A stretch of 64,000 bases of DNA from an uncultured Mycoplasmatota bacterium (GCA_900542735.1 UQOS01000002.1:7545-71544), one strand, 5' to 3'. Counted from the stretch's first letter, positions 4,346-52,003 are shown. Notes: a model not told the origin generated them from the letters alone. Program-made: numbers and translations.

Positions 4346-6088
4346 TTAGGCATCTACTTTAGTTTGTTTGATTTCTTTTCTTGTTTTTAATTTCTTCTTT
4401 TTTGTTTTAGGTTTCATTTCAGAGTCATTTCCACTATTATCTTTTTTCTTTTTTACTACTTTTTTCATAAATAACATGATACTAATACCAAATACCATTC
4501 CTAATAGAAAAATAAGTAAATAAACTATAATATTCATAATAGAAAATTCTTGTACTCTCAATGTATAAATATCGTATTCTCCACTAGCTGAAGTTACTAG
4601 TAAATAAATTGTTTTTCCTTCTTCTATTATATTTACTGTACTATTTTCATCTTCTAAAACTACTTTTTCTATTTTAAAATTTTTATATCTTTTATAAGAA
4701 TATTCTCTTTTAGTAGAATCTATTTTACCAACTAAACTACCATTTTTAAATTTTATTTCTTTAATATTTGTATTAGAAGAAAGATTTGTTTCTAAAAGAT
4801 TATTTCCTCTTGCTACAATTACTGTATATTCTTTAATAGAATTATCTTCTGCTGTTACTAAAATTTTATAATTATTATTTCCTACATTTAATTTATTTGG
4901 TCCTTCTATTTTAACTTTAGCATATTTAATATCTTCTACTACTGTTTCAAATTGAATACTATCTACTTCATAAGGAAGATAAACAATATACTTGGTTTGT
5001 TCTTTATTAAAAGATGGACTTAAAGTACCAGTTGATACTGTTAAACTAGATAAATTATTATTTGTAGATAACACTTTATTAGGATCTTTTCCACGAGTTG
5101 CATGAATAGTATAGGTCTTTGTACTTCCATTTTCTGCTGTTACTACTATTTTTACATCTGTTGTTTCTTCAGCAGTTAAATTGGTATTCGTAATACTGAT
5201 TTTAGCTTTCTCATCTTCTGTTTTAGCATTTACTTTTAAATTAGAAATACTATAAGGAACTGATACACTATAACTATCTGTATTTGCATTAAATTTAGGA
5301 CTTAATTCTGCTCCATTTACGCTTAAACTAGCTAGTTTATTATTACCACTACGATTATCTTTTCTATTAACAGTAATTGCATATGTTTTTTTATCACCAC
5401 TAGGTGCAGTTACTACAATATAAAACTGATTATTTCCATAATTTAAATTCTTAGTACCTGTTCCTGTAATACTAGCATCACTATCTTCTGCTGATGCTGA
5501 TATATTAATAGAAGTAATATTATTTTCTACTGTTACTTGGTAACTTGTGTTATTTTTATTAAAATTGATATTAGCATTACTTACTGATAAACTACTTAAG
5601 TTATTATTCGTACTAGGTGGTGTAGTTATCGTAATTGTTTTACTACTTCCACTAATATTAACAGGAGATGCACTAGCATCAGGTTGACTACTTCCTGTAT
5701 AAGAAACATTAGCAGTACCAGTTTCTTTAGCACGGAAAGTAAGCCTCATAATATTTTGATAACCTTTAATAGTATTAGCACCAAATCCACCAAACTTAGT
5801 TCCTACTAAATCAATATTAAAGGGAGCTAAAGAAGTCGCACCAATTAATTCTAATTTATCACTAGAATAATTTAAGTTACCACCAAAAGCAGCTAATCCA
5901 CCATCATCAGTTGTACCTGATACACTTCCAATATATAAAGTAATATCAATGGTATTTCCTACATAAACACTACTATTTCCATTAAAACCTGTAGTAGCAT
6001 TTCCTAGTGCGTATATTTTAAAAGGACATAAAAAAAGAAAGAAGGAAAGAAGAAAAAAGGTTATTTTTTTTATATTCAATCTTTTCAT
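4346..6088 (-). CDS. membrane-anchored cohesin-domain scaffold protein with four cadherin-like modules (580 aa)
   Basis: Start moved to the ATG at 6088 (MKRLNIKK), 7 nt after a GGAGG RBS. Order: signal peptide, cohesin-like module, 4 cadherin-like beta-sandwich repeats, C-terminal TM (IVYLLIFLLGMVFGISIMLF), Lys-rich tail. Confidence 0.85.
   Translation of the reverse strand: MKRLNIKKITFFLLSFFLFLCPFKIYALGNATTGFNGNSSVYVGNTIDITLYIGSVSGTTDDGGLAAFGGNLNYSSDKLELIGATSLAPFNIDLVGTKFGGFGANTIKGYQNIMRLTFRAKETGTANVSYTGSSQPDASASPVNISGSSKTITITTPPSTNNNLSSLSVSNANINFNKNNTSYQVTVENNITSINISASAEDSDASITGTGTKNLNYGNNQFYIVVTAPSGDKKTYAITVNRKDNRSGNNKLASLSVNGAELSPKFNANTDSYSVSVPYSISNLKVNAKTEDEKAKISITNTNLTAEETTDVKIVVTAENGSTKTYTIHATRGKDPNKVLSTNNNLSSLTVSTGTLSPSFNKEQTKYIVYLPYEVDSIQFETVVEDIKYAKVKIEGPNKLNVGNNNYKILVTAEDNSIKEYTVIVARGNNLLETNLSSNTNIKEIKFKNGSLVGKIDSTKREYSYKRYKNFKIEKVVLEDENSTVNIIEEGKTIYLLVTSASGEYDIYTLRVQEFSIMNIIVYLLIFLLGMVFGISIMLFMKKVVKKKKDNSGNDSEMKPKTKKKKLKTRKEIKQTKVDA
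5627..6007 (-). other. cohesin-like module of the 580-aa protein
   Basis: GNATTGFNGNSSVYVGNTIDITLYIG...GGNLNYSSDKLELIGAT...MRLTFRAKETGTANVSY. The pattern fits the cohesin fold and is more divergent than the other two copies. Confidence 0.55.
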
Positions 6089-6092
6089 CTTC

Positions 6093-8276
6093 TTACCTCC
6101 AATCGTCATTATCATTTTCTTGATACTTTCTTTGTTCCTCTTCTTTTTTCATTAACTCTTTTTTCTTTTGATTTAGTGCATCTTGCTGTAATAACATTTT
6201 TAACTTTGATGGATCTTTGGTTCTAGTTGCTTCATGAATAGCGTCTATAATTTCTTTTTTGGTAACTGTTTCATCATATGGATCATATGGTGTATTTTCA
6301 TTTTCTTCATATCTAGCTTCATAAGTATTGGTACTACCTAATCTTTTTAATTCACTATCTTTTGTAGTTACTTCACTGTTTTGATTATAGTTACCATGAA
6401 TAACGTCATCATCTGATGTATTTTTAGATCCAAAATTAAATTCTGGTTTTACTTCAATAATTGGAGTTACTCTTTTATCATTATCGTCATCATCATCTTT
6501 TTTCTTACGGAATAATAAGAATAAGATAAGTAATAAAAGTAAACTAATAATACCAGCGATAATACCAAATTGTAGTGGAGTTAAACCTAAAATTTTAGAT
6601 TCTTCTTTCTCTTTTTCTACATCAATTGAATAATATTTCGTAAAACCATCTTTATCAGTAACTTTTATTAATACAGTATTATGACCAACTTTTAAGTTTT
6701 CATTACCAATAATTTCTACTTTACTACTACTATCACTTGGTGTAGCTTTAATATCTAATTTATTAGTATTTCCATCTACTTTAGCAGTATATTCTTGATT
6801 ATTAGGATCAAACTTAGGAGTAATACTTACATTATCTATCGTAATATCTTTTAAATCTGTCTTACTAGAAGCTGTACTACGAGTAACATTTAAAGAATAA
6901 ATTCTAACACTACCATCTTCTGCTGTTACTTTAATTTCTACTGTATTTACACTACCAACTTTAAAGTTTTCATTACCAGTAATTTCTACTTTAGCTTTTT
7001 CATTGCTTGTAATGTAACTTAAATCTAATTTTTCTACTTCATAAGGTACTTTAATATTATAACTATTTACATTTTTATTAAAACCTGGTTCCATTTCATG
7101 TGATGATTTAACTGTTAAACTTTTTAAATAGTTATCATTAGACTTAGTATCTGTTTTCGTATCATTATTAGATGAAGCTCTTTCTACATTTACTATATAA
7201 GTATTTACTGTACCATCTTCGGCTGTTACTTTAATCGTAACGGTATTATTTCCCTCTTTCCAGTTTTTATTACCAGATATTACTACTTTAGCTTTGTTAT
7301 TATTAGGAATTGCTGTAACATCTAAACTTGTGATATTATTTTTAACTTTCATAGAATAATTGTTTACATTACTCTTAAAAGTTGGTGTTAAGGTATAACC
7401 ACTAATATCTAATTTCTTTAGTGTTGCATCATTTGATTTTTTTACTTCTTCTTGTTTTTCTTTTTCAATTTTTACAGTATATGTTTTAACACTTCCATCT
7501 TCTGCTGTTACTTTAATAGTAGCAACTGTTTCATTACCTGTTAAAGTAATATTTCCAAGTCCTGATACTGTAGCTTTACTATGATTAGTAGCACCTTCTA
7601 ATTTTATCGTTGTTGCTGTAGAAGGAACTGTTACTGTATATGATGTTGTATTTGCTTTAAAGCTAGGTGATAAAGTATAACCACTAGCTGATAAACTTTT
7701 TAAAGTGGCATCACTACTCTTAGTAGAAGGAGTAGGACTAGTTGATGGTGATGGACTAGTTGTAGGTGTTGGACTAGTTGTAGGAATAGGATTGGCGTCT
7801 GTAATTGTAATACTTTTTGGTGTTACAGTAGTAGTTAATTTACTAGATACATCACTTAATTTAGCATTCGTTAAAGTTACTTGAGTGGTACCTACTTTCT
7901 TTGCTTTAAAGACAAAAGTAAATACTTCAGTCTTACTTGTAATACCACTAGATAAAGTAGTATCTAATCCCGCAATTATATAATTAGCATTTGTATTAAT
8001 TTGAAAAGTATAGGGACTAGTTGTACCTGTTCCTGATACATATTCTAGGTAATTACTATCAAAAGATAAATTACCACCTACGCTAACGATACCACCATCT
8101 GTTGAATTATCACCATTTACATACATTTTAATGGTAATTTTATCATTTAGGCTAACCGTTGAATTACCACTAAATCCAACGGTAGCACTACTTGCTTTTA
8201 CTGGTACTAGATAAGTTAATAGTGAAAAACCAACTACTAATGCCATTAATAAATTTAAACTTTTTATTCTTTTCAT
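6093..8276 (-). CDS. membrane-anchored cohesin-domain scaffold protein with a Pro/Thr/Ser linker, four cadherin-like modules and a long charged cytoplasmic tail (727 aa)
   Basis: AGGAGG RBS before the ATG at 8276. Order: signal peptide, cohesin-like module, linker PIPTTSPTPTTSPSPSTSPTPST, 4 cadherin-like repeats, TM (FGIIAGIISLLLLLILFLLF), then a 138-aa acidic/basic tail. Confidence 0.88.
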   Translation of the reverse strand: MKRIKSLNLLMALVVGFSLLTYLVPVKASSATVGFSGNSTVSLNDKITIKMYVNGDNSTDGGIVSVGGNLSFDSNYLEYVSGTGTTSPYTFQINTNANYIIAGLDTTLSSGITSKTEVFTFVFKAKKVGTTQVTLTNAKLSDVSSKLTTTVTPKSITITDANPIPTTSPTPTTSPSPSTSPTPSTKSSDATLKSLSASGYTLSPSFKANTTSYTVTVPSTATTIKLEGATNHSKATVSGLGNITLTGNETVATIKVTAEDGSVKTYTVKIEKEKQEEVKKSNDATLKKLDISGYTLTPTFKSNVNNYSMKVKNNITSLDVTAIPNNNKAKVVISGNKNWKEGNNTVTIKVTAEDGTVNTYIVNVERASSNNDTKTDTKSNDNYLKSLTVKSSHEMEPGFNKNVNSYNIKVPYEVEKLDLSYITSNEKAKVEITGNENFKVGSVNTVEIKVTAEDGSVRIYSLNVTRSTASSKTDLKDITIDNVSITPKFDPNNQEYTAKVDGNTNKLDIKATPSDSSSKVEIIGNENLKVGHNTVLIKVTDKDGFTKYYSIDVEKEKEESKILGLTPLQFGIIAGIISLLLLLILFLLFRKKKDDDDDNDKRVTPIIEVKPEFNFGSKNTSDDDVIHGNYNQNSEVTTKDSELKRLGSTNTYEARYEENENTPYDPYDETVTKKEIIDAIHEATRTKDPSKLKMLLQQDALNQKKKELMKKEEEQRKYQENDNDDWR
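7800..8192 (-). other. cohesin-like module of the 727-aa protein
   Basis: ATVGFSGNSTVSLNDKITIKMYVNG..GGIVSVGGNLSFDSNYLEYVSGTG..PYTFQIN..NYIIAGLD..FTFVFKAKKVGTTQVTLTNAKL. Close paralogue of the module at 30601-30993. Confidence 0.6.
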
Positions 8277-8286
8277 AAATTTCCTC

Positions 8287-11200
8287 CTAATGCAATGAAA
8301 TTCTTCCTAAATAATGATTTAAAATCATTACTGAATCAAATAAGTCAATATCAGTATCATCATTGACATAAGCTGCTTCTTGATAAGCTCCTGTTAATAA
8401 TGTTTTCGATAAATAGTGATTTAAAATTTTAACAGCATCGAATAAATCAATTTCACCATCACCTGAAGTATCTCCTTTGATGACTACATATTTACGATCT
8501 TTTTCTACCCCATCAATTACTAGTTTAACAATCATACCAGTAGCTAGTTTTTCATCATCATTTATTTTTCTTGTTTCAGTTGCATCCCAAATTTCTAAAT
8601 ACTCATTTTCATTATCTAATTGATTTTTCATTTCTTGTCCAGTAGTATTTAATTTTACAGTTCTAATATAATTATTCATAATCGTATGTCCAAATTGAAT
8701 AGAAGTAATAGTGCTAGCAGGATCAGCTTCTTTATTTACATTAATTTTATAAGTTAATACTGTACCATTTTCACTAGTTACTAAAATAATTACTTCTGTA
8801 TTTCCACTCATTAATGGTGATAGTGTTAAAGTATGTGGTGAAGTATAAGTAGTTCCATTCATTTTCATAATAGCTGTGTTATCTTCTGTAATTGCCGTAA
8901 TATCAATTGATGATACGGTTCTATCTACATTAACGGTATATAGGAATGTATTTTTATTAAATGTAAGGTTACCTTCACTTACTAAAATATTACTTAAGTA
9001 AGCATTAGTTGATGCTTCTTTTTCATAAGTAATTTTATAGTTTTTAATTGTAGTTCCATCTTCTGCTGTTACTTGAACAGTAATGGCAGATTTTCCTTCT
9101 ATCTTAGGAATATTTACAGTATTACTTGACTGTTTTACCCCATTTACTAAATAACTTATTTTAGAAGTTCCCATGTTAGGAGTTGCATGAATAGTAAGTG
9201 TTTCTAAACTAAATGGTATTTTTCCAATAGAATATTCTAAAGAGTCCATACTAAACTTTTTATCAAGTTCATAACCTTCTACATTTAAACTACTTAAGTT
9301 AGCATCTGTTGATGCTTTTCTTTCTAGTCTTTTAATAATAACGATATAAGTTCTAGTAGAATTATCTTGGGCTTTTACGATAATACTTACTGGATTATTT
9401 CCTACTACTAAGTTATCTATCGTAACTGTTTTTGGAGTAAATGATACATTACCATTTATATCAACGGTTGCATTACTATCTTCTGTTTCCATAGAAAGAT
9501 CAATACTAGTTACTTCATTTTCTACTGTTAAATTATAATTTTCTTTGGTTTTAATAAAATCAATTGAACCAATTGATGGTGCTAAGCTAATTAAATAATT
9601 ATTACTTGATGGAATTATATTATAAGAAATATTATATGTTTTATTAGTGATACCATCAGCAGCTGTTACTACTACTGTAATTACTTTATTACCCATTACA
9701 TTTGGTATACTAACAATATTACTATCTTGTTTAATACCGTCTACATAGTATTCTATTGTAGATAAATTATTATTAGGAGTTGCATTTATTTTTAATTGAG
9801 TAGTTCCATATGGTAAATCTCCTAATGAATAATCTAGTGTTGTTTGAACAAAAGCTTTATCAAGAGGGTATCCTGTTACTGATAAATTACTTAATGTTGC
9901 ATCTTTACTTAAGGCTTCAACTACTGTAAAGTGATAATTTAAAATCGTACCGTCTTCTGCTGTTAAAGTTAGAGTTACTTTATTATCAGATAAATGATAG
10001 TTACCATTTCCAGATACAGTAGTTTTATTAATGGTTGGAACTCCTTCAATAGAAAAATCATTGCTTCCATAAGGAACTGTTATTGTATATTCATATTTAT
10101 TTGATACAAAAATTGGTGATAATGTTGCTCCTGTTAGTTTAACTTCTTTTAAAGAAGCATCACTTGATTTTGGTCTAATTACTTTAATCGTATAAGTTTT
10201 TGTTGTTTTACCATCTTCAGCAGTTACAGTTACAGTATAATAATTATCTTGTGTTGTTGATAAAGTAATTTCTTCTTGTTTTGCTATAGTGGCATTACTA
10301 TCTTCTAAGATAGCTGTTACTTCAGTTGGAGATAATTTTTCTTTAGTAGCTTCTACTGTTACTTCATAATCATATATTTCACTATTAAAAGTTGGAACTA
10401 AAGCATAACCAGTTACTGCTAAAATACTTAAGTTAGCATTATTATTTTTATTTCTAGTAATATTTATTTTATAAGTTTTAATAGTACCATTTTGAGCTGT
10501 TACAGCTATTTCAAATGTATTTAATCCAGTAGTTAATCCTTTAGTACCAAGACCACTAATCGTTGCATCAGAATCTACTGTAGTAGCACCTATTTCAATA
10601 CTTGTTTTTGTATATACTACATTATCTAAAGTATATTCTAAAGTATCTTTATTAAAATCTTTTACAGGATTACCATCTACTGTTAATGTTAATAAGTCAT
10701 TATTTTCTTTTTTAGCCCTTACTACATTAATTACATAGTTTTGTCTAGCACCTGATTCACTTTCTACAGTAATCGTAATCGTATTATTACCAACATTTAA
10801 ATCATGATTTCCAGTACCTGATAAAATCTTAGCACGACTATCAGATAAGGTAGCTTCGATATCAATAGAATCAATACTTCCACCTACATTTACGGTATAA
10901 GCAGTAGTATTTTGATTAAATTCAGGTGATAAATTTCCTTCACTTACAGTAATAGAAGATAATGTATTATCACTAGATTTCGTTCTAGATATATTTAATT
11001 TATAAGTTTTAGTTACTGTTAAATCTTCACTTACTACCACTACTTCTATTTCTTTTGTACTTTCTGTCATAGTATAATGACCAATTCCAGATGTGATACT
11101 AGCATGAGGCTCAGTAGTAATTGCACTTACATCAAATTCAGTTGTTTCAACAGGAACAGTTACATTATATTCTAAAGTATCTTTATTAAAACTTGGATTA

Positions 11201-15006: not shown

Positions 15007-15035
15007 GTAACTTCCTACTTTCTTATTCTTATATA

Positions 15036-15044
15036 AGTATACCA
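15036..15044 (-). promoter_or_regulatory. possible extended -10 promoter (TGgTATACT) ahead of the 2239-aa gene
   Basis: Minus strand reads TTGGTATACT about 30 nt upstream of the ATG at 15006. No clear -35 element. Confidence 0.3.
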
Positions 15045-15091
15045 ATTTTTTCGATATATTTCTACAAAAATTAATAAATGTTTTTATTTTC

Positions 15092-15137
15092 TAAAGATAT
15101 AAAGTGCAAACACTAAATTTTGCACCTTATATCTTTA
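15092..15137 (-). other. 19-bp RNA hairpin between the two giant genes
   Basis: Arms 15092-15110 and 15119-15137 with an 8-nt loop. Fully paired in the minus-strand transcript (one G:U), but A:C mismatched on the plus strand. A second small hairpin GCGAA-TTT-TTCGC sits at 15139-15151. No T-run follows. Confidence 0.6.
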
Positions 15138-15162
15138 GGCGAAAAATTCGCTTAAAGATTTT

Positions 15163-24100: not shown

Positions 24101-27100
24101 TTGTTGAATTCTGGACTAAGAGTTATTTTTTTAGGATTATCTTTGTTTGTAATATCTGTTACTGTTAAATCTGTTAAGAAAGCATTATTACTTTCTAGTC
24201 TAGTAACATAAATGGTATATTGTTTTTCGGTACCATTTTGAGCTGTTACTGTTATCTTAATAGTATTTTGTCCATAATCTAAGGTATCAGGTTTGGTAAT
24301 TTTTACAGTAGCATTTGGATCATCTGCTATAGCTTCTATTTCAACATTTTCTGTTTCATGAGGAACTGTTACATAATAATCCGTTATATTGTAAGAATAA
24401 TTAATATCATACTCAGGTGAAGTCATCTTTAAAGATCTTAAATCAGCATTACCTGTCATATCACGGTAAATATCATAATACCATGAAGTAGTATTATTTT
24501 TATCTTCTGATGTAACATCTATTTGGAATTTATTGCTTCCACCTGATAATTCATATAAACCATCGCCATTTACTGTTTGGAAATAATGAGCTTTATCTAC
24601 TACCATTACGATTTCACGGATAGTATATGGTACTTTTACTTGATATGAGTTAGTATTTTCATCAAATTTATAAACACAAGTACCTTCCATAGAAGAACAG
24701 TATTCTTGAAGTAAACCATTAATTAAAATATTTTTAGGAGAAGCATTAGTATCAGCTTTTCTTGTTACTACTACTTTATAAGTTTTGGTATAACCGTTTT
24801 CAGCAGTTACCACTAATGGTATTTCTGTAGTACCAGCTTCAATAATATAATCACCATTTCCAACAACACTTGCTTTACCATCTGAAGGAACTCCTTCAAC
24901 ATTAATTTCAACTTCATCACTTGCTAAGGTTAAGTAATAAGTATCGGTATTATAATCCCAGTCTGGAGTCATTACTCCTTTATTTGAAATGATACCATCA
25001 AGGTAGTTATTTTCACTTTCTTGATAAGGAATTGTGATTTTGGCATAACCATTACCGGCATGTCCTGTTTCTTTTGTTCCTGTTGGTGAGGTAAAGGAAT
25101 TAGAACCACTTAAGGTGTTGGCGTTTGTTAAATAATAATCACTGTTTAATAACCATTTACTGTCATTTTCAATTACGGATGCGTTTTCTTCGGTATAGAT
25201 GAAACCAGATCCACCACCGCCACCGTTAGACCAGCCGCTTGTAGCTCCACTTCCTCCACCGTACCAGCCGCCTCCGCCGCCACCACCGTAGTAATTTCCA
25301 CCACTAGTAGGAGCGTTAGCACCAATACCAAATTTACCTATTGTTCCAATTGCGCTACTATATTTTCCGTAAGTTCCACCTTCAGTTTGAGTACCACCAC
25401 CAGCTTGAGTTCCACATGAACCACTGGCGCTAGATCCACCACCATTAAGGCCTCCACCTACAGCACCACTAGCACAACCATCTGATCCGTGTCCGCCACC
25501 ACCACCGGCAACGATTACACGACTATATAAGGAATCTGTACCTATACGAATATCTGATGCTCCTCCACCTTTACCAACGCGAGAAGTACCACCACCATTA
25601 AATCCACCACTGGCACCACTTCCACCAGCATATACATAAAGAATAGTACCTTTGGTTAAGTAAATATTACCATAAGAGTAACCACCACGGCCACCACCAT
25701 TACCACCTTGGGCTCCCCAAACTTCTAGTAAATATTCATGGTCGTATGGAATAATTACAGTTTGAACATTACCATTATAACTTAAATCTTTTTCATAACC
25801 ACTTACAGTTACTCGTTTTACATGAAGAATATAAGTTGTTGCATCAACATGTGGCTCTGTTACATTGATCGTAATATCAAAATTGTCAGATTCAATGTAG
25901 CCATCGCCAGTTACTGTAGCTTTAGCTTCATTATCATATAAATCAACAATAGTATTTACTGCTGCTATATGGCTTTCAAATTCAATATCAAATTCCGTTT
26001 GATCATTAGGAATTGGTATTTCTATTACTGAACCACCACTACTGTTAAAGGTTAGTTTTTTAATTTTACTTGAGTGAGGTAAAGTAATGTTTAAAGTATA
26101 AGTTTTCGTACTTGTACCAGTTTCATTAGTTACTGAAATTGGTATTTTATAAGTATTATTTTTATTAGAAATATGACCGATATTAGTAATAATTTGGTCG
26201 GCTGAACCTTTATCAACTGTTAAATCATACTCATCCATATAATAAGGTAAGGTTACATTATAAGTTAAAGTATCTTTATCAAAAGTTTTATCAGAAAATT
26301 CAGAGATAGAATATTCATCAAAATAGATATTATTTAAATAATCAATATCATTTGCTTCACGGTGAATGTGATATGTAAATACTTCTACAGCGCCATTAAT
26401 ATAAGTAATGGTTATATTATAAGTATTATCACCAACATGAATTTCTTGTTTACCATCACCATCTACTTTTAAGATAGAATCACTATCAGTTACTGTGAAG
26501 GTTACTAAAGAAGAATCATTACTAGATAAAGTTCCAGTATATTCTTTTGTATCATAATCAAATTCTTTATCTAAAGTAACATTATCACTAACGATAATAT
26601 CATAATCATATGATAATGAGAAAGATATTTTAACGAATCCATTACCAGTATGACCTGTTTCATTGCCACCTTTTGGTGCTGGGAAGCTAGTGTTTCCGGC
26701 TTTAGTAGATGCTTCAGATAGATATTGACTAGATGATAATAAGTATTCATCAGGTACGATAGACGCGTTTGATTCGGTCCAAACAAAACCAGAACCTCCA
26801 CCGCCTCCACGGTCATCGTCTCTAGAACCGTCAACGCCAGCTCCGCCACCGCCGTACCAGCCGCCGCCACCGCCTCCGCCGTAGCCACCATTAGCAGCAA
26901 TTCCGGATCCTCCTTTTCCAAAGGTTCCGATATTGGCACCGCCTGAAGTTTGACTAGCACCTTGAGCACCATCACCGTAATCACCTGCACCGTTGCCACC
27001 GGAAGTTCCGCCACCAACTCCGCCGGTATTACCACTAGCGCCAACGGAACCACCTCCGCCAGCAACTATTAAACGATTATATAATGATTGGCCACCTAAG

Positions 27101-29592
27101 CGAATATCTGATGCACCACCACCATAGATAGTGCCATAGCCTGCTTTTCCACCACCGTTCCAGCCACCATTATTACCGTTACTTCCAACATATACATATA
27201 AAATTTGCCCTTTATTTAAGAAAATTTGTCCAGTTGAATAGCCACCTTTTCCACCATTATTACTTCCACGATGTCCACCTTGGGCACCCCATGCTTCAAG
27301 AGTATAAATTCCAGCTGCAGGGGCAATAAATTTTTGTGGTAAACCATTATATTCATACCCATAAGCTCCTGTTGAACCACTCATTAAGTAATCACTTTGC
27401 TTATGGAAAGTAATTTTATAATTAACTGTTAAACCAGTAATATCATTTTTTACATCAACACTATATACATATTGTTTACTGTTTGTGATATCATAGCTAC
27501 CGGTATGACTTTCAACCATAGAATAGCCATCATTTAGTTGAAGGTTAACATTAATACTATTTACACTATCAAGTACTGAAATATTGTATTCATAAATTGT
27601 GTAATCAAAGTCAATAGGAACTGTACCATCATTAATCGTAATATCAGCAACACCATTGATTAATTTAGGACTAATTCTGACATAACCATTACCCGCATGT
27701 CCTGTTTCGTTAGAACCAGTTGGTGATAAAAATGAAGCATTACCATTTATTAAAGAAGCATTTGTCAAATAATTTTTATCAGTAACTAAGTAACCTTCTG
27801 GTACATATTTACTATTTTCACTAGTAAAGGCAAAGTTAGATCCTCCTCCTCCACCTTTATCGTCATCTCTACTGCCATCTGGATTAGCACCACCACCGCC
27901 GTACCAGCCACCACCACCGGCGCCAGCATAGCCACCTGATCCAAATGTTCCATCTCCACCATAACCGAATCCTGCGCGATAGCTTCCAGCAGCATTAATA
28001 GAAGCAGCTGTTCCACCAGATCCGCAACCAGATGATGCACTAACGCCACCTGCTCCACCGCCATTACCACTAGCTCCAACGGAACCACCACCACCAGCAA
28101 CTAGGACTCTATTATATAAAGTATTACCACCATAGCGAATATCAGTAGCTCCACCACCATAGGTATTAGTAGTTTCATGCCAAACACCACCAGTTGTATA
28201 ATAACCAACGGTATGGCCACCACCATTATATCCTTTTTTTAAACCATCTTTTGTGGTAGTAGAACCAGACCCACCAACATAAATATATAGTACTTCTCCT
28301 TTAACTAAATACATGTCAGCTTTAGAGTAAGCTCCTTTTCCACCATTATTACTTCCACGATGACCACCTTGAGCTCCCCAAGTTTCAAGAGTATAAATAC
28401 CTGTTGCTGGTACATAGAATTTTTCATAATCACCAGCATATGAGTAACCATATGATACACTGCTACGATTTTCTAAGTAAGCATTTTGTTTTTTTACTGT
28501 TACTGTATAAATCTGCACAACACCTGTTTCGTTATCTGTTAAAGTAATAGTATTCGTAACAGATAATTTATCAGTCATATCGGTACTACGATTTGATTGA
28601 GTTAAATTGTAACCTTCCTCAGTAGTTATATTAAAACGAATATTTTCAATGTCATTATCTACAGTTAAATCATAATTATAGATATTATATTTATAATCTA
28701 TTGGAACATTTCCACGATTGATTTCAAAATTAGTAATTCCATCTAATTTTACAGCAGTTATTTTAGCATAACCATCACCAGCTCTATTTCCATCAGTATA
28801 GTTAACACTTGTCATAAAATAATCTTCGCTGACTGAGTAACCAGTTGGTACATATTGTTTTGTTTGAGAGTTCCAAGTAAAACTTGAACCTCCTCCACCA
28901 CCGCGATCATCATCTCTACTGCTGTCCGGATTAGCTCCGCCACCACCGTACCAGCCGCCACCACCGGCACCAGCATAGCCGCCTGCACCTGATGTTCCAT
29001 CTCCACCATAACCGAATCCTGCACGAAGACTACCGGCTGTAGATAATGAAGCACCTATTCCACCAAAACCACAACCGCTTGTAGAGCCACCAGTGACACC
29101 TCCTGCTCCACCAGTATTACTATTAGAACCAACGGAACCTCCACCGCCACCAACAATTAATCTTGATTTAAGGCTTGTTTCATTATTCCATTCACCAGAT
29201 ACAAAACGAATATCAGTAGCACCGCCACCATATATTTTTAACTGTGGTTGAAATCCTCCACCATTGTATCCTGTATGAGTTTGACCACTACCACCAACAT
29301 AAATATATAGAGTATCTCCTCTTTTTAGATATACTTCTCCTGTTGCATAGCCACCTTTTCCACCGTTATTAGACCCGCGGTGTCCACCTTGAGCTCCCCA
29401 AGTTTCAAGTTTATAAATACCACTTCTTGGAACAACAAAAGTTTGATAATCACCTGTGTAATTAAATTCATATATATTACTATTAGTTCCTGCATTTACT
29501 ATTGGCAATCCTAAAAATCCTGTTAATAAAGTTACTAGCAAGATACTAAATACCCTTTTACTTCGTTTTAATTTATTAAATACTCTATTCAT
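15163..29592 (-). CDS. giant secreted protein (4809 aa): four glycine-rich modules, about 38 cadherin-like modules, a Big_2-like module and a C-terminal dockerin
   Basis: Single uninterrupted 14.4-kb ORF. Signal peptide MNRVFNKLKRSKRVFSILLVTLLTGFLGLPIVNA. Repeated LS.L.V..G.L.P.F......Y...V......V.V.A...A.V....L..G.N...I.VTAEDG...Y.I.V.R modules (counted by eye). Confidence 0.92.
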   Translation of the reverse strand: MNRVFNKLKRSKRVFSILLVTLLTGFLGLPIVNAGTNSNIYEFNYTGDYQTFVVPRSGIYKLETWGAQGGHRGSNNGGKGGYATGEVYLKRGDTLYIYVGGSGQTHTGYNGGGFQPQLKIYGGGATDIRFVSGEWNNETSLKSRLIVGGGGGSVGSNSNTGGAGGVTGGSTSGCGFGGIGASLSTAGSLRAGFGYGGDGTSGAGGYAGAGGGGWYGGGGANPDSSRDDDRGGGGGSSFTWNSQTKQYVPTGYSVSEDYFMTSVNYTDGNRAGDGYAKITAVKLDGITNFEINRGNVPIDYKYNIYNYDLTVDNDIENIRFNITTEEGYNLTQSNRSTDMTDKLSVTNTITLTDNETGVVQIYTVTVKKQNAYLENRSSVSYGYSYAGDYEKFYVPATGIYTLETWGAQGGHRGSNNGGKGAYSKADMYLVKGEVLYIYVGGSGSTTTKDGLKKGYNGGGHTVGYYTTGGVWHETTNTYGGGATDIRYGGNTLYNRVLVAGGGGSVGASGNGGGAGGVSASSGCGSGGTAASINAAGSYRAGFGYGGDGTFGSGGYAGAGGGGWYGGGGANPDGSRDDDKGGGGGSNFAFTSENSKYVPEGYLVTDKNYLTNASLINGNASFLSPTGSNETGHAGNGYVRISPKLINGVADITINDGTVPIDFDYTIYEYNISVLDSVNSINVNLQLNDGYSMVESHTGSYDITNSKQYVYSVDVKNDITGLTVNYKITFHKQSDYLMSGSTGAYGYEYNGLPQKFIAPAAGIYTLEAWGAQGGHRGSNNGGKGGYSTGQIFLNKGQILYVYVGSNGNNGGWNGGGKAGYGTIYGGGASDIRLGGQSLYNRLIVAGGGGSVGASGNTGGVGGGTSGGNGAGDYGDGAQGASQTSGGANIGTFGKGGSGIAANGGYGGGGGGGWYGGGGAGVDGSRDDDRGGGGGSGFVWTESNASIVPDEYLLSSSQYLSEASTKAGNTSFPAPKGGNETGHTGNGFVKISFSLSYDYDIIVSDNVTLDKEFDYDTKEYTGTLSSNDSSLVTFTVTDSDSILKVDGDGKQEIHVGDNTYNITITYINGAVEVFTYHIHREANDIDYLNNIYFDEYSISEFSDKTFDKDTLTYNVTLPYYMDEYDLTVDKGSADQIITNIGHISNKNNTYKIPISVTNETGTSTKTYTLNITLPHSSKIKKLTFNSSGGSVIEIPIPNDQTEFDIEFESHIAAVNTIVDLYDNEAKATVTGDGYIESDNFDITINVTEPHVDATTYILHVKRVTVSGYEKDLSYNGNVQTVIIPYDHEYLLEVWGAQGGNGGGRGGYSYGNIYLTKGTILYVYAGGSGASGGFNGGGTSRVGKGGGASDIRIGTDSLYSRVIVAGGGGGHGSDGCASGAVGGGLNGGGSSASGSCGTQAGGGTQTEGGTYGKYSSAIGTIGKFGIGANAPTSGGNYYGGGGGGGWYGGGSGATSGWSNGGGGGSGFIYTEENASVIENDSKWLLNSDYYLTNANTLSGSNSFTSPTGTKETGHAGNGYAKITIPYQESENNYLDGIISNKGVMTPDWDYNTDTYYLTLASDEVEINVEGVPSDGKASVVGNGDYIIEAGTTEIPLVVTAENGYTKTYKVVVTRKADTNASPKNILINGLLQEYCSSMEGTCVYKFDENTNSYQVKVPYTIREIVMVVDKAHYFQTVNGDGLYELSGGSNKFQIDVTSEDKNNTTSWYYDIYRDMTGNADLRSLKMTSPEYDINYSYNITDYYVTVPHETENVEIEAIADDPNATVKITKPDTLDYGQNTIKITVTAQNGTEKQYTIYVTRLESNNAFLTDLTVTDITNKDNPKKITLSPEFNKMNLKYDLEVENSVSKISLTGTLEDELLATSTGLQEYDLNVGANTINVVVTAQDGSSLTYTIVVRRKANSNTLLADLTVDEAPLTEKFESTKFVYYLYVTGEVEKLTINATPQAGTSTYQIIGNYNNLIAGKNEITIRVTSEDKSTCDYKLIVNRTGYNDNYLQSLLVTNGNENYILTPNFDPLYDKYVLNLPNDITNVVLTATSNGKKRASIGNSSVYVKNINLLSDNPSENNIVVTAEDGTTRTYSVIITREKSSDNTLASLEVEENTLIPNFNSDTLNYSFTTNDHSLNIKAVPNNKYAKVVISDNAKNLVPGENIITITVTSETGVEKVYTLTVTRELSSDNTLKTLEVKDIILNPSFDPNTLEYNFDTHKVNIEITAIPNNKYAKVEIIGNLKLNLGLNEIEIKVTSETGDIRIYKINANFVLDDNNYLSNLTTNTGLEQEFSKELLEYTKTTEDSRITINATIESKNATYSITDSTGNVIDTFPQELTLGENIFFVNVTAQNGNVRTYKITINRNKSSDSKLSNLTTSEGLNEEFNSESYQYTLNTKAHNLTITPTVRNEYASYKIYDINGDIVDNDINLITGSNIYMIIVTAEDNTTSTYNLVINRSDNNIATIDSLGIITNETFDKNTFNYTITTDESSLNLDNIVLTDSYATYTVEGNSNFTNDQTQEVLIKVTAEDKKTTNTYKLTVTKVVSTDSRLEIFKLGNYGFTPKFDKDTTTYEVFIPSTLTSANLELKTLKNTATIKSIMIDNNEQVTTSSNTYKNVITIPDITTSSNITVTVKAEDNTETTYTLTLTDEVVINNYLSTLNVSCGNLDPVFDRETTSYTVFTESNVTSCTVLATKEVDIATITGNGDYNFPANEKYLDIPITVTSSRGEERVYNVTIRRPLSNESRLSNLELSTYTLDPVFQSDTYEYNVTVPNFINHLSKDNFTYTTLDPDSTVTFEDKDLVSGKVTKYTIVSTSEDGTNKSTYILNVSREKSSDTTISSVNVTVSDNKFSCNMDPTSKLCTIEVPSNTSDFTLEATLPDMASVNPANPSKHTLLATEYNKDISLTVTAEDDTTDTYTVRIIRSESSNNDLMDLQVNYVSLPNFSSTKLSYEKTVIGTMNQVMITAVLADTKATVVTDLSKPFNLEYGLNTIEIVVRAEDKTEKTYTIEITRCDSVNAQLSSLSVKNYPFEETYDPEETEYTIRVPRTKKTLTRDEIIYSLADKNASITLDNKLDIDFDKTSNIYTITVTAGDGVVQKYYHISVLPELSTNNNVDKIVVDGVEIKPNSDKEFSYDIFDTDTNATLTSITLSNEYAVHNVMLPQKLTYDNQYQFMVTAENGDVAIYTVNLVRSKTRELKLANIEANFQKEDDCSGICTFDKVFNEDTTNYEIYIPNEITSLDDLVITPKNNLQTYEIIGNSNLSVGENTIIIRVKNSLNETFDYTLTVYREANSDPNILGVSFITPEYEITDFDENLYEYNVEFNAIESGKYELDVEKKNDNQQIEIKGAKVLYFGRNDIIVHTKSESCSTTVKTRYGCNEKDYIIHAYRNEKYSNLLASLTVSSGDTGDFLQVFNKYKFDYVLEVDSEISTVKIEGTAVNTTHATVFGNGEFNLTPGLNTFQIIVTPEIGDPSTYTLNIIRKQSDNVNLANLKVTGYELSPEFVKNTVDYYINIDSTVNQLDIIYTKEAEDQLVYITGNSNFVTGENIVNVVVLSADKTRGKTYKIHANRSASDNNLLNGITVSSMKNDIETIYPLTPDFNNEVNDYTVNVSKDISEINIKTIKGQKMQTIVGNGSYILDYGINVIPITVTSESGLVNTYNITINREFEFGLNSLTVSHDDTIYDLDPVFDPDTLEYNVSVDYEIDSVIVDATLKETLNDINGLGEYQLNTGNNDIVITVSYGENSRDYIIHVNRKKCSDNSLKSLQVAEGLIDPSFNKDILEYNVDIPYEYDSATVIYETNSKDATVEIRNNTDLEIGITKDIEVIVTAENGDIKTYIIHATKLPKPTASNRLINMYIDEATLEPVFNIGIMNYTAEVLKDTKRVNLHLQAEEKMYSTVEVYKLGSTTKTKVDMKVDDPKIMLNVDAGKNSFVIRVTNYEGSVRNYQLDIYRAGPNEARIKNLSFDYGTLAPVFDKNKNAYTMEVENTVTKLTETVTMMDEKATYTISGNKNLKIGENTITITTLAQDGKTSLEYTIIVTKKASSNAYLSDIVTFPEKDFTFDKEKYNYIYHVESNINTIQIIGIREDTTAKITGNGIYQLTGEDLTVKLTVVAQDGTTKVYTVVVTKKKESDNNLESLTINNGELVPNFDKDTLEYTVELENYIDSINVTGKSESDKATVSGNGNYNLVEGKNKIQIMVTAEDGTIKTYTITVTRKENELEQTLLEDLSVLEGALTPDFNPNTLNYIVNIPNEYESATVTYKVHNPDAVVDIYGNDNLEVGHNIITVKVSYNGEDTTYTIDAIRQEASNTYLNVLSVMNHDITPEFDKTIQNYTLTVANNIASIELKATPELSTSTVYIKKDTDYKETAGVTTINLTPGENTIYIKVVSISKAERVYKLVVTRENSDENKLLTLESSTGNITPKFDKDVNSYTLNVPVGTKYVTLSGTVSENATVNGLETYPLTVGTVTKYITVTSQSGLVNTYEVTIVREASHDALITNIKPSVGSLNPSFTSDTKSYTIEVEGDVNNISFDVTTNSKDTLVVGNGVTTLFAGKNIITITSIAEDGITQESVNIEVYKKTDIISFDTDLEINVPVGNDYQIDIKYNPENTDYNGMTYTVNNKSILTVSDTGLITPLTVGDTTITITSTRNKSLTKTVTVHVINPVIQSDTYYINRDDEDNNYITGMEPNTIVDDFLSNLKNERENLKVYESTETNVVENEENVKTKYIVKLVINNITYDQLNLVVKGDIDGDGYITVADVTLAENSILRLSKLDKIEFVAADIDVDNYVTVADVTKMQNYILRLNSSLNTDLYEQLEDK
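15205..15390 (-). other. dockerin (two F-hand segments) of the 4809-aa protein
   Basis: GDIDGDGYITVADVTLAENSIL ... ADIDVDNYVTVADVTKMQNYIL. Both segments show the D.D.D.....D calcium-loop spacing followed by a helix. Confidence 0.7.
15628..15876 (-). other. bacterial Ig-like group 2 (Big_2)-like module
   Basis: ISFDTDLEINVPVGNDYQIDIKYNPENTDYNGMTYTVNNKSILTVSDTGLITPLTVGDTTITITSTRNKSLTKTVTVHV matches the usual Big_2 pattern (..Y.S....ATV...G.VTA...G.A.ITA). Confidence 0.55.
25030..29475 (-). repeat. four diverged glycine-rich modules (about 240-260 aa each; ALK/LTK-type Gly_rich, PF12810-like)
   Basis: Modules at about 28750-29475, 27670-28455, 26620-27363 and 25030-25785. Each has Y.Y.G..Q.F..P..GIY.LE.WGAQGG..G..GGKGGY..G...L.KG..LY.YVGG.G, GGGA.DIR, R..VAGGGG, GWYGGGG and ETGH.GNGY.KI. 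Dense GGN codons make them GC-rich islands in AT-rich DNA. Confidence 0.7.
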
Positions 29593-29618
29593 ACTATCAC
29601 CATTTTACTCTATAAATA

Positions 29619-29647
29619 AGTATACTATATTTGTCTTATTTTGTCAT
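29619..29647 (-). promoter_or_regulatory. candidate sigma-A promoter of the 4809-aa gene
   Basis: Minus strand has ATGACA (29647-29642), a 17-nt spacer and TATACT (29624-19). An A8 tract lies just upstream, and the promoter follows the preceding terminator. Confidence 0.45.
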
Positions 29648-29680
29648 TAAAATGGAACTTTTTTTTCACTTTTATACGCA

Positions 29681-29706
29681 TAAAAAGTCTGCTATATTTA
29701 GCAGAC
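29681..29706 (-). terminator. rho-independent terminator after the 151-aa gene
   Basis: Minus strand reads GTCTGCT-AAATAT-AGCAGAC followed by TTTTTA. Confidence 0.7.
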
Positions 29707-29716
29707 CATCTATTTC

Positions 29717-30172
29717 TTATTTTGTTTCTTCTACTTCAAATCCACACACTAGATTTGTATCAATACGGTAATCCTTTTTACCATAAGGCTCTTTAGGATA
29801 AATAATAACCATCGAATTTGTTTTATCACATTCTTGATTTGTTTTACTATTTACAAATTTCTTGATAATTTCTTCTGACTCATCTTTTTTATAACGAGCT
29901 AAATTATCTAAACTTACTTTAATACCAATATCAGTATATTTTTCTAAGAATGTTTTCTTTTCTTCATCAGTTTTCCCTATTTGATTATAGTAAAAATCTT
30001 CATAAAATGATATCCCTAGTTCTTTTAATTCTTTTGTTAGTTTTTGAGACTCATTTTTTGAGTGATTATTAAATATCAGAAATAAACTGATAATTACTAT
30101 TAATAGTAATATAATACCTCCTATTATATAATAATGTTTTTTATTTAGTTTTTTTAAATTTATTTTTTTCAT
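29717..30172 (-). CDS. small N-terminally anchored hypothetical protein
   Basis: 151 aa. TM helix YYIIGGIILLLIVIISLFLIF, then a soluble domain with two Cys (QECDK...LVCGF). Lies between the small cohesin gene and the giant gene. Confidence 0.75.
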   Translation of the reverse strand: MKKINLKKLNKKHYYIIGGIILLLIVIISLFLIFNNHSKNESQKLTKELKELGISFYEDFYYNQIGKTDEEKKTFLEKYTDIGIKVSLDNLARYKKDESEEIIKKFVNSKTNQECDKTNSMVIIYPKEPYGKKDYRIDTNLVCGFEVEETK

Positions 30173-30312
30173 AATTCTACCTACCTAACGCATTCATTAT
30201 AACATATTTTTATCATTTGAAACATATAAGTGTAAAAAAATACTAACTCTCTATCTCTATTTAGAGAAAGTTAGAATTAGTATTTATATTTATTATCATT
30301 TTATTACTCAAA

Positions 30313-31065
30313 TTATTTAAATAAATTTAAAATTTGTTGAAAGAAGTTGGTTACACTTTTCGTTATTTTTTGTATTAGGCTTTTTTCTTTTTGAGTAGTA
30401 ACTTGGTGTGAAACTATTGTATTCTTTTCCTTTTTTTTACTTTCTACTTCTTCTTGTTTTACGATTTCATTATTTTCTTTTTCAGCATTTAAATTTATTT
30501 CATTTTCTGGTTCTACCTTGATTTCTTTTTCATTCTTTATAGATTCAGTGTTTATAACTGGTATTTCTATATTTTTTAGTTCTTCATTTTTATTTTTTTG
30601 AATAATATCAATTTCTTTAGTTACCACATTATTAGCAATATAATCTTTACTATCTGTTAGTTTTGTGTTTGTTAGAGTAATTGTAGTAGTACCTTCTTGT
30701 AAAGCTTTGAATGTAAATTCATATACAGTTAAATTATCTTTAATACCGTTCTCTAGAGTAAAGTCAAGTCCAGCTATTTTATAGTTATAATCCTCATTAA
30801 TTTGAAATTGGTATGGTGTATCTATTCCTTTTGAAGAAATATATTCAATTTTTGTGTTATCAAATGATAAATTACCACCCATACTAACAACACCATCGTA
30901 AGTATCTTTAATATCTTCAACATTCATTTTTACTGTAAAAGTATCTCCAACTGTAACTGTATCATCACTATTAAATGATACTGTAGCATTTCCCATAGCA
31001 TAAACAGAAGTAGTAGAGCTTAATAAACAAATTGTCATTAATCCTACAAGTATTTTATTTTTCAT
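30313..31065 (-). CDS. small secreted cohesin-domain protein (250 aa) with no TM anchor or dockerin
   Basis: Signal peptide MKNKILVGLMTICLLSSTTSVYA, a cohesin-like module, then a Glu/Lys-rich tail ending in an amphipathic LIQKITKSVTNFFQQILNLFK. RBS AAAGGGGGA. Confidence 0.85.
   Translation of the reverse strand: MKNKILVGLMTICLLSSTTSVYAMGNATVSFNSDDTVTVGDTFTVKMNVEDIKDTYDGVVSMGGNLSFDNTKIEYISSKGIDTPYQFQINEDYNYKIAGLDFTLENGIKDNLTVYEFTFKALQEGTTTITLTNTKLTDSKDYIANNVVTKEIDIIQKNKNEELKNIEIPVINTESIKNEKEIKVEPENEINLNAEKENNEIVKQEEVESKKKEKNTIVSHQVTTQKEKSLIQKITKSVTNFFQQILNLFK
30601..30993 (-). other. cohesin-like module of the 250-aa protein
   Basis: GNATVSFNSDDTVTVGDTFTVKMNVED..GGNLSFDNTKIEYISSKG..PYQFQIN..NYKIAGLD..YEFTFKALQEGTTTITLTNTKL. 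Motif-by-motif parallel to 7800-8192. Confidence 0.6.
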
Positions 31066-31241: not shown

Positions 31242-31315
31242 GGGTCTATAGCCAAGTGGTAAGGCGTGGGACTGCAACTCCCTGATCGTTGGTTCAAATC
31301 CGACTAGGCCCTCCA
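31242..31315 (+). tRNA. tRNA-Cys (GCA)
   Basis: Acceptor GGGTCTA/TAGGCCC, D-loop with GG, anticodon loop CTGCAAC, T-arm GTTGG-TTCAAAT-CCGAC, encoded CCA. Confidence 0.85.
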
Positions 31316-31322
31316 CTTTTAT

Positions 31323-31396
31323 GCGGACATAGTTTAATGGTAGAATACAACCTTGCCAAGGTTGCTGTGGGGGTCCGATTCCCCTTGTCCGCTCCA
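31323..31396 (+). tRNA. tRNA-Gly (GCC) with a non-canonical T-loop (TCCGATT)
   Basis: Acceptor GCGGACA/TGTCCGC, anticodon arm CAACC-TTGCCAA-GGTTG, T-arm GGGGG-TCCGATT-CCCCT, encoded CCA. Confidence 0.8.
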
Positions 31397-33688: not shown

Positions 33689-34688
33689 ATGAATCATAAA
33701 GATAAGATAAACGAAATTATAGAAGTAAGTAAAAAGCGTTTGGAACTTAAAAAAATTGGTTTACTTCCTTATGCAATTTGGCCAACTGGTCCTACTGGGC
33801 CTAGTGGTAGAGGGTTAGAAATTATAGGTAGTTATGCTAGTTTAGAAGAATTAAAAAAAGATCACCCTACTGGTAAAGATGGCGATAGTTATATTTATCA
33901 ATGGTGAATTATATATTTGGGATTCTACTATTCATAACTGGACTGATATTGGTAATATTAAGGAGCCTAAAGGAGATACTGGAGATACTGAGACTTTTAT
34001 TATTCAAAAAACTACTACAGGAGAAGCTGGTACAAAAGCACAGGTAATTGACAATAAAACTGGATTAGAACATCACTTAAATTTTATAATTCCTAAGGGT
34101 GATAAAGGTGAGACTGGTAACGAAGGTAAAATGGGGCCTACTGGTCCTAAAGGAAAAAAAGGAGAAATAGGTCCTAAAGGTGAAACTGGTCTTCAAGGAG
34201 AAATAGGCCCTATAGGAATTCAAGGGCCAACTGGGCCAACTGGACCAACGGGACCACGAGGAACTGCTAGTCCAACTGATTATAATACTATTGGCTTTGC
34301 TAGTATTATAAATACCAAAAAAGCTGGAACTACTCAAATTTGTAACACAAGAGTAATCCCTGGCGTTAGTGATTATATAGTGATTAACGGTAATAGTATC
34401 ACGATTAAAAAAACTAGTGTGTTTGAAATTGTACTTTGTGGTAGAATTTCTGGAGTTACTCAAAATACAGGAGCATCTTTTTCATTATTTAATACAGAAA
34501 CAAATGCTGTAGTTAGTGACTTATTATTTGTATTAGAAGCAGGAAATACGCCTGATATGAATTTTTCTGAAATGACTGTAACGGATATTATAGGTCCTAC
34601 TACTTTAGAAGTTAGAACGACTATTAATGGTAATGATGAAATTAGTTTTTCAGAAATGAATGTATTACTTAAAAGCTATAATATTTAG
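33689..34688 (+). CDS. collagen-like triple-helix repeat protein (BclA-like) with the reading frame broken by a 1-nt shift near 33893-33899 (possible pseudogene)
   Basis: GGAGG RBS before the ATG at 33689. ORF1 (33689-33907) and ORF2 (33879-34688) overlap in frames offset by +1. Skipping one T of ATTT gives ...KDGDSYIINGELYIWDSTIHNWTDIG. G-X-Y runs are present (GPTGPTGPSG; GDKGETGNEGKMGPTGPKGKKGEIGPKGETGLQGEIGPIGIQGPTGPTGPTGPRG), followed by a C-terminal globular domain. Confidence 0.7.
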
Positions 34689-51926: not shown

Positions 51927-52003
51927 TGGTCGGGAAGACAGGATTTGAACCTGCAACCCCTTGGTCCCAAACCAAGTGCTCTACCAAGTTGAGCCACTTC
52001 CCG
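51927..52003 (-). tRNA. tRNA-Pro (TGG)
   Basis: Acceptor CGGGAAG/CTTCCCG, anticodon arm CTTGG-TTTGGGA-CCAAG, T-loop TTCAAAT, encoded CCA. Confidence 0.9.

Follow-up and report, generated by a model that had tools for sequence, protein, structure and literature searches.

A 64,000-nucleotide stretch of DNA from an uncultured Mycoplasmatota bacterium (GCA_900542735.1 UQOS01000002.1:7545-71544; hereafter the window) carries, at positions 4346-31065, a locus encoding cohesin, dockerin, and cadherin-like repeat proteins, which we analyzed computationally. The locus consists of six genes, all on the minus strand, and each open reading frame (ORF) was found where an earlier inspection of the DNA without database searches (hereafter the sequence-only reading) had placed it: A (A580; 4346-6088; 580 amino acids [aa]) and B (B727; 6093-8276; 727 aa), which are anchors; C (C2239; 8287-15006; 2239 aa), an adaptor; D (D4809; 15163-29592; 4809 aa, 523 kDa); E (E151; 29717-30172; 151 aa); and F (F250; 30313-31065; 250 aa). 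The ORF of C spans 8287-15045, with a likely ATG start at 15006 and an AGGAAG ribosome-binding site upstream of it, which gives a protein of 2239 aa. Identical copies of the locus proteins, in the same order, were present on several independent metagenome assemblies. Each protein is a member of a 90%-identity cluster of 300-585 members, all of which are named only 'hypothetical protein [bacterium]'.

Proteins A to D contain tandem arrays of cadherin-like domains. In Pfam scans, PF12733 (Cadherin-like; cutoff, 24.2 bits) was matched with E values of 4e-28 (A), 6e-36 (B), 5e-132 (C), and 1e-198 (D), with scores in the range of 98-645 bits. A hidden Markov model (HMM) iterated on the locus counted 4, 4, 20, and 38 repeats in A, B, C, and D, respectively (66 in total), exactly the numbers that had been estimated by eye. 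Neighboring repeats are old and divergent (median identity, 31%; maximum, 52%), and no DNA tandem repeats were found in the locus by Tandem Repeats Finder, a result that speaks against a recent expansion of the repeats or their collapse during assembly. The divergence of the repeats and the lack of DNA tandem repeats together indicate that the giant ORFs are not assembly artifacts. The D protein was also recovered in identical or near-identical form from many independent assemblies.

The largest protein, D, begins with a signal peptide and a head in which four Gly-rich ALK/LTK-type domains are interleaved with five cadherin-like domains (24976-29487; Pfam and HMM). A stalk of 33 further cadherin-like domains follows (15889-24975; HMM repeats), and the protein ends with a single Big_2 domain (15652-15849; Pfam), an X module (15388-15633), and a canonical dockerin, DocD (15190-15387; Pfam in isolation and PDB sequence match). 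PF12810 (ALK_LTK_GRD/Gly-rich) matched four stretches of D with 453.7 bits (cutoff, 24.5; E=3e-136). Among PDB sequences, the Gly-rich domains gave a weak match to the ALK homologue SCD-2 (7LIR; E=0.07). The GC content rises from ~0.27 to 0.35-0.37 at window positions 24000-30000; a foreign origin of this segment was considered and rejected, as the segment is the Gly-codon-rich head of D4809 with its four PF12810 domains. A secondary hot spot of variation among strains was located in the third Gly-rich domain of the head (D aa 841-960; window 26700-27070), where 43 of 120 columns were variable compared with 5-12 in the stalk, consistent with a distal, exposed ligand-binding region.

The presence of a cohesin module at the N-terminus of A, B, and F, as proposed in the sequence-only reading, was established for B by Pfam and by fold, and for A and F by clear homology. 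Scanned alone against Pfam Cohesin (PF00963), the B module scored 26.2 bits (cutoff, 24.1). Its AlphaFold2 (AF2) model, with a predicted local distance difference test score (pLDDT) of 92.4, conformed to the nine-stranded beta-sandwich (jelly-roll) fold of cohesins; all 18 of the 18 best PDB matches were cohesins (TM-score, 0.66-0.78), and the best of these were cohesins of Clostridium perfringens (0.77-0.78). The homologues P0001 and P0004-P0007 carry precomputed PF00963 annotation. The A and F modules alone gave no Pfam Cohesin match; they were recognized by a profile built without them with E values of 5e-15 (A) and 8e-45 (F), and the F cohesin is 47% identical to that of B. The modules of A, B, and F and their homologues, which we refer to as alpha-type cohesins, were combined into a profile that aligned over its full length with the cohesin of C. 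perfringens NagJ as the best PDB match (E ~0.17). When this profile was searched over 1.84 billion representatives, 572 clusters were retrieved, including bona fide scaffoldins with 5-8 cohesins and CBM2 or CBM3. A tighter profile, A2, retrieved the related loci described below; a genome scan queried with F250 gave no match.

In B, a signal peptide is followed by the alpha-type cohesin (7782-8192), a Pro/Thr/Ser linker, four cadherin-like domains (6612-7676), a transmembrane (TM) helix (6501-6593; aa 562-592) followed by RKKK, and a cytoplasmic tail of ~135 aa (6096-6500; aa 593-727). In A, a signal peptide and alpha-type cohesin (5591-6007) precede four cadherin-like domains (4550-5578), a TM helix (4454-4549), and a short Lys-rich cytoplasmic tail, with a hairpin at the stop codon (4360-4332). 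In each of the two proteins, Lys/Arg residues come directly after a strongly hydrophobic C-terminal helix (positive-inside), so that A and B are single-pass membrane anchors with an N-out, C-in orientation. The cytoplasmic tail of B is conserved in every related locus (57-76% identity) and gave no Pfam match; it may couple the fiber proposed below to something inside the cell. F250 consists of a signal peptide, an alpha-type cohesin (~30586-30996), and a K/E-rich tail. No hydrophobic segment was found past its signal peptide, hence no TM segment, and F250 is predicted to be a secreted single-cohesin protein. The view that the cohesin proteins are membrane-anchored scaffolds consequently holds for A and B, which have TM segments, and fails for F250. 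F-like genes are present in two related loci, L007 and L015.

The C-termini of both giant proteins were identified as dockerins by PDB sequence matches, as had been suggested, although the two dockerin sequences had been interchanged: GDIDGDGYITVADVT is part of D (4809 aa), and GDTSGDGEIDLFDAV is part of C (2239 aa). A dockerin is characterized by a duplicated ~22-residue segment comprising a 12-residue EF-hand-like calcium loop (D/N at positions 1, 3, 5, 9, and 12) and a helix. This duplication was evident in DocD, in which both calcium loops, DIDGDGYITVAD and DIDVDNYVTVAD, are canonical; DocC, the dockerin of C, is atypical. Against Pfam dockerin type I (PF00404; cutoff, 22.9), DocD scored 30.1 bits in isolation and 22.6 bits within full-length D. 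Its best PDB sequence match was the dockerin of Clostridium thermocellum Xyn10B (2CCL_B; E=1.3e-6), and its significant matches were dockerins. For DocC, all nine of nine PDB sequence matches were dockerins (best, 2Y3N_B; E=1.7e-3), and the first calcium loop, DTSGDGEIDLFD, is canonical. DocC and DocD are distinct sequence types, and the X modules that precede them in C and D are homologous to each other (38% identity). Among the Pfam families expected at this locus, PF12733, PF12810, Big_2, and, in B alone, Cohesin were found, with DocD above the cutoff only in isolation and DocC below it.

The sequence-only reading took the three cohesin ORFs as the full set and overlooked that C, too, carries a cohesin at its N-terminus, the fourth of the locus. 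This cohesin is divergent, and we refer to it as beta-type (Coh-beta). Following the signal peptide, C consists of Coh-beta (14332-14919; ~200-aa N-terminal domain), 20 cadherin-like domains (8731-14265), an X module (8485-8730), and DocC (8290-8484). A word-indexed homology search with the N-terminal domain of C alone gave no match, and we gathered Coh-beta orthologues from the related loci. Four of the six orthologues matched Pfam Cohesin (best E=2.4e-5), and the orthologue profile matched Clostridium acetobutylicum CohA2 (PDB 6KGC) at E=0.006; Coh-beta of C itself scored 14.2 bits against PF00963 (cutoff, 24.1). The best 50 PDB fold matches of its AF2 model (pLDDT 72.2) were all cohesins, with TMt values up to 0.71, and included 5K39, 5M0Y, and 2B59, entries associated with the X-dockerin (XDoc) dyads of cellulosome anchoring. 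No profile similarity between Coh-beta and the alpha-type cohesins of A, B, and F was detectable by hhalign (probability, 1.5%). Treating them as one family was rejected on this insignificant result, and they were handled as two cohesin types. With a cohesin at its N-terminus and a dockerin at its C-terminus, C carries on one polypeptide the two modules that define an adaptor scaffoldin, and its sequence and model indicate a cohesin-stalk-X-dockerin adaptor architecture. Coh-beta and DocC are likely to be of different specificities.

Pfam scans of the locus, the rest of the 64-kb window, and the related loci detected no glycoside hydrolase (GH), polysaccharide lyase (PL), carbohydrate esterase (CE), other catalytic domain, or carbohydrate-binding module (CBM). 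The six proteins gave no Pfam match to the S-layer homology (SLH) domain and have no LPXTG motif at their C-termini, in agreement with the absence of enzymes, CBM, SLH, and LPXTG noticed by eye. No unassigned stretch long enough for a hidden catalytic domain remains in the locus proteins.

A search for the same gene order in related genomes, which the sequence-only reading had put forward as a check, located D-C-B-A in at least five species-level metagenome-assembled genomes (MAGs). In species-representative MAGs, the order is [giant Cad-Doc][Coh-beta-Cad(14-20)-Doc][Coh-Cad4-TM][Coh-Cad4-TM]. These MAGs are labeled as uncultured Bacilli, Tenericutes (GTDB genus UMGS872, a human-gut taxon), and Bacillales. 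A DocC-type X-dockerin was found on 24 metagenome contigs, all of which were from the human gut and showed the C-B-A order, and its carriers were C-type stalk proteins in all 24. Between species, DocC (66-91% identity) and CohB, the cohesin of B (60-79%), have changed slowly, and Coh-beta (22-46%) and DocD (23-55%) fast, even where the stalk of C is 89% identical. CohA, the cohesin of A, is more variable than its own stalk between species. In a sister lineage (L007, L008, L009, and L015), the A-type anchor is replaced by a small Coh-Big_2-Doc protein. This mini-adaptor of ~300 aa, which has a third type of dockerin (…KDAMEIMYIV…), is encoded at 3488-4399 in L008, 4463-5362 in L009, and 12094-13011 in L015, and additional Big_2/LRR dockerin proteins are found downstream of it. 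The genes flanking the locus are not conserved with it in other species.

We then compared four alleles of the locus within the species (window, L016, L017, and L019) by DNA alignment. A segment of 1.3 kb on the minus strand (~14,352-15,654), comprising X-DocD from the end of D, the intergenic region, and the coding sequence for the signal peptide and Coh-beta of C, was hypervariable: only 35% of columns inside this cassette were identical in all four alleles, compared with 96.6% outside. The borders of the cassette coincide with module borders, namely, the end of the Big_2 domain of D and the end of Coh-beta of C. At the protein level, variable columns within the species cluster at C aa 1-240 and D aa 4681-4800. 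DocD and Coh-beta are the only modules hypervariable among strains; the cohesins of A, B, and F, DocC, and the stalks are 97-100% conserved (stalks, 97-99%), and CohA is nearly invariant, with 0-4 variable columns per 60. Both modules fall into four discrete groups, which are 55-72% identical for DocD and 36-56% identical for Coh-beta. The DocD and Coh-beta alleles paired 1:1 on 11 contigs, with no recombinants, and their distance matrices were correlated (Mantel r=0.87; 8 of 5040 permutations as high).

In both modules, one allele crosses species boundaries: that of L016 is nearer to those of other species (DocD, 85% identity to L012; Coh-beta, 62% to L012 and 54% to L011) than to the conspecific alleles (DocD, 44-50%; Coh-beta, 31-35%). 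In the DocD alleles, the calcium-ligand positions are kept and the helix faces are changed. The two helices of DocD vary in concert, with 10.3 of 14 positions identical within an allele (74%) versus 6.3 of 14 between alleles (45%), as would be expected if a symmetric dockerin were selected for specificity.

These features lead us to propose that the locus is probably a self-contained cohesin-dockerin system, free of enzymes, whose proteins dock serially to form a very long fiber on the cell surface. In the proposed assembly, A and B would be type-I membrane proteins, whose four cadherin-like domains and linker would carry the N-terminal cohesin out through the wall. The invariant DocC of C would plug into the cohesins of A and B, and possibly also into that of the secreted F. 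The 20-domain stalk of C would end in the divergent Coh-beta, which in turn would capture the symmetric calcium-loop dockerin DocD of the secreted D, presumably in a calcium-dependent manner. The 38-domain stalk of D would then hold the four glycine-rich ALK/LTK-type domains at its far end, where they would form a likely ligand-binding head. The chain would thus run from the membrane through A or B and C to D, with ~62 beta-sandwich domains and a predicted length of roughly 200-300 nm by analogy with other tandem-Ig adhesins. Such an architecture suggests an adhesin role for the putative fiber. The gene order D-C-B-A mirrors the chain, as the 3' end of each dockerin gene lies beside the 5' end of a gene that starts with a cohesin, and the hypervariability and co-inheritance of DocD and Coh-beta point to fiber-on-fiber assembly. 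With the C-D joint in discrete, putatively cognate alleles, D should dock only onto the matching C. The sequence-only reading had proposed that cohesin-dockerin glue hangs non-enzymatic fibers on scaffolds. The core of this idea agreed with all of our in silico tests, and real cohesin and dockerin modules do occur on non-enzymatic, cadherin-like repeat proteins, but the picture of both giants side by side on three membrane scaffolds is incomplete because C has its own N-terminal cohesin, co-inherited with DocD in one hypervariable cassette. Head-to-tail polymerization of C by insertion of DocC into Coh-beta was also considered and was rejected, as DocC is invariant but Coh-beta is hypervariable.

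Several observations weigh against serial docking. DocC scored 19.2 bits against PF00404, under the cutoff of 22.9, and its second loop, YVNDDTDIDLFD, is atypical in lacking the Asp at position 1 and Gly6. The confidence of the Coh-beta model was only moderate (pLDDT 72), because the alignment was shallow. Three alpha-type cohesins face a single DocC. In L015 and L007, the Coh-beta adaptor is kept with no D-type giant nearby; for this reason, Coh-beta may have other partners. Further proteins with dockerins may also be encoded outside the locus. Finally, the DocD and Coh-beta coding regions are <300 bp apart, and physical linkage alone could give their co-variation.

An alternative wiring in parallel, in which C is attached to B via DocC and D to A via DocD, would leave the tip cohesin of C free for a third-party dockerin or another cell, and hence for cell-cell recognition. 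A-type anchors and D-type giants indeed occur together in the window, L011, L012, and L013, whereas L015 lacks both of them locally; CohA varies more than its own stalk between species, and Coh-beta persists in loci without a D-type neighbor. The species-level comparison of rates does not separate the two wirings, and the strain-level data are more discriminating. Within the species, CohA is nearly invariant, whereas DocD occurs as four alleles that are 55-72% identical, a diversity that a single cohesin would probably not accommodate. Moreover, the cassette swaps DocD together with Coh-beta and not with CohA. We therefore regard the parallel wiring as unlikely.

The locus could also encode a cellulosome- or amylosome-like scaffold whose cohesins recruit dockerin-bearing enzymes encoded elsewhere, with the cadherin-like arrays serving as carbohydrate-binding stalks. 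The homology of the alpha-cohesin profile to true scaffoldin cohesins and the excess of cohesins (4) over dockerins (2) in the locus would fit such a scaffold. No GH, PL, CE, or CBM accompanies the modules at any of the three scales searched, every DocC-type carrier in the metagenomes is a C-type stalk protein, and each protein has a single cohesin, with no multi-cohesin scaffoldin; recruitment of enzymes thus appears improbable. The hallmarks of cellulosomes and amylosomes are likewise missing, since no enzymes were found in the locus, window, or relatives, no scaffoldin combines several cohesins with a CBM, and neither SLH repeats nor a sortase signal serves for anchoring.

Peer and colleagues reportedly described in 2009 that modules resembling cohesins and dockerins, with no known function, are widespread outside cellulosomes, and the modules considered here might not pair at all. 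In that case, each giant would be a secreted adhesin or sheath protein in its own right, and immune or phage pressure on exposed epitopes would account for the variable block. This explanation leaves D and C without another anchoring device, as neither has a TM segment, LPXTG, or SLH. Variation is confined to one dockerin and one cohesin, with the calcium ligands kept and both helices changing in concert, and the equally exposed stalks are 97-99% conserved. We consider the absence of pairing very improbable. It is hardly credible that the proteins form an appendage of the spore surface or exosporium instead of belonging to the surface of vegetative cells: sporulation-type genes occur in the window (YunB above cutoff), and at a distance of 3 kb from the locus there is a gene for a collagen-like, possibly BclA-like protein, but A and B are anchored as ordinary Sec/TM proteins, nothing links the locus to sporulation regulation, and in other species the locus has different neighboring genes.

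The polymorphic cassette may possibly constitute a natural orthogonal lock-and-key set, in which the secreted D, a very costly product, docks only on cells with the matching adaptor allele. This tentative interpretation would imply self/non-self surface assembly, with kin-specific privatization or cell-cell recognition, and the cassette would be maintained by balancing selection and exchanged among species of uncultured human-gut Bacilli. The allelic cassette leads to a directly testable prediction of cognate-only binding. Its alleles would also supply synthetic biology with a natural set of cohesin-dockerin pairs that are possibly orthogonal, and they offer a way to ask how cohesin-dockerin specificity evolves and whether it serves gut bacteria to discriminate kin or partners.

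Cohesin-dockerin pairs are known mainly for holding enzyme complexes together. If our proposal is true, they also join megadalton structural fibers end to end on the surface of a bacterium that is common in the human gut, although uncultured. XDoc dyads of types II and III act in cellulosome anchoring, as in C. thermocellum CipA and Ruminococcus flavefaciens CttA. Similarly, a small beta module directly precedes each dockerin in C and D, load-bearing attachment rather than enzyme recruitment is predicted here, and the X module of D belongs to the variable cassette. The X modules of this locus are likened to cellulosomal X modules by position. In contrast to those dyads, the dockerins here are scored as type I by Pfam. 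Giant tandem-Ig adhesins such as SiiE, LapA/MpIBP, and Ebh extend over hundreds of nm as divergent beta-sandwich repeats with a distal ligand-binding region, and are single polypeptides anchored by type I secretion system retention modules, LPXTG, or TM segments. The proteins described here share divergent tandem beta-sandwich repeats with low identity between neighbors and a predicted ligand-binding region at the distal end, but the fiber would be split over three polypeptides with predicted non-covalent cohesin-dockerin joints.

Among cohesin-dockerin systems, the C. perfringens NagH/NagJ complexes (PDB 2OZN, 2JH2, 2VO8, and 2W1N) are an established case of non-cellulosomal pairing and likewise come from a low-GC Gram-positive gut organism. 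Their modules are on secreted glycoside hydrolases and toxins, which they assemble into complexes, whereas enzyme-free giant stalks and membrane anchors carry them here. In R. flavefaciens, ScaC is a polymorphic single-cohesin adaptor with '117 scaC-types' (PMC3197198). Like C, it combines a cohesin and a dockerin on one secreted protein encoded in a compact scaffoldin gene cluster; it plugs into another scaffoldin, as is predicted for C, and marked intraspecific diversity is common to both. However, ScaC is small and recruits enzymes, whereas C has a 20-domain cadherin-like stalk and its predicted partner is a 4809-aa non-enzymatic fiber. In our locus, the dockerin of the putative partner also co-varies with the cohesin in a swappable cassette, and anchoring is by TM helices in place of a sortase substrate such as ScaE. 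In our literature search, we found no description of a TM-anchored, enzyme-free, serial giant-fiber cohesin-dockerin system, nor of an allelic cassette in which a dockerin and a cohesin are inherited together. Adhesion by cohesins and dockerins without enzymes has a precedent, since adhesins of this kind have been proposed for adhesion or partner recognition in anaerobic methanotrophic (ANME) archaea and their sulfate-reducing partners (PMC10553843). Both are predicted systems of enzyme-free cohesin/dockerin proteins. The consortia differ in phyla, habitats, and architectures, and their proteins were not described as serial giant fibers or polymorphic cognate cassettes.

Between D and F, E151 (29717-30172) comprises an N-terminal TM helix (aa 12-39) and a domain of ~110 aa with two Cys residues, and a terminator-like hairpin lies past the gene (29707-29686). 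Homologues with ~50% identity were found within L007 (4087-4584), L013 (13802-14248), and L015 (4182-4637), and E151 is predicted to be a conserved accessory component. Promoter scans of the AT-rich locus DNA gave counts not above those of shuffled sequences and were uninformative.

The human-gut host is a walled, Gram-positive, and probably sporulating Firmicute, as indicated by YunB, a RodA/FtsW-like protein, and a lipoteichoic acid-anchor glycosyltransferase encoded in the window; this agrees with the AT-rich spore former envisaged from the sequence. Three genes at window positions 56797-57561, 53872-54786, and 45317-46444 gave YunB, above the NCBIfam cutoff, and YutH-like and YtvI-like matches below it. 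The label 'Romboutsia timonensis' on one public fragment of B was not relied on, as the relatives are labeled uncultured Bacilli, Tenericutes, and Bacillales. On the plus strand, 33879-34688 encodes a 269-aa collagen-like protein (Pfam Collagen, 36 bits) with a GXY run at ~aa 74-130 and a C-terminal globular part of ~140 aa. This gene is the sole plus-strand protein gene near the locus, 3 kb away, and may encode a BclA-like spore or surface filament protein. At 1092-2321 on the minus strand, and at 17289-18578 in L001-L004, a 409-aa protein with an N-terminal hydrophobic segment gave weak matches to Lcl_C/DUF6273. The gene next to it differs in length by strain (294, 429, 339, and 145 aa) on contigs that are otherwise identical. 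An array of 13 tRNA genes is located at 51930-52977 on the minus strand and accounts for a GC bump at 52-54 kb. Two further tRNAs (31242-31393) lie just upstream of F250 on the opposite (plus) strand.

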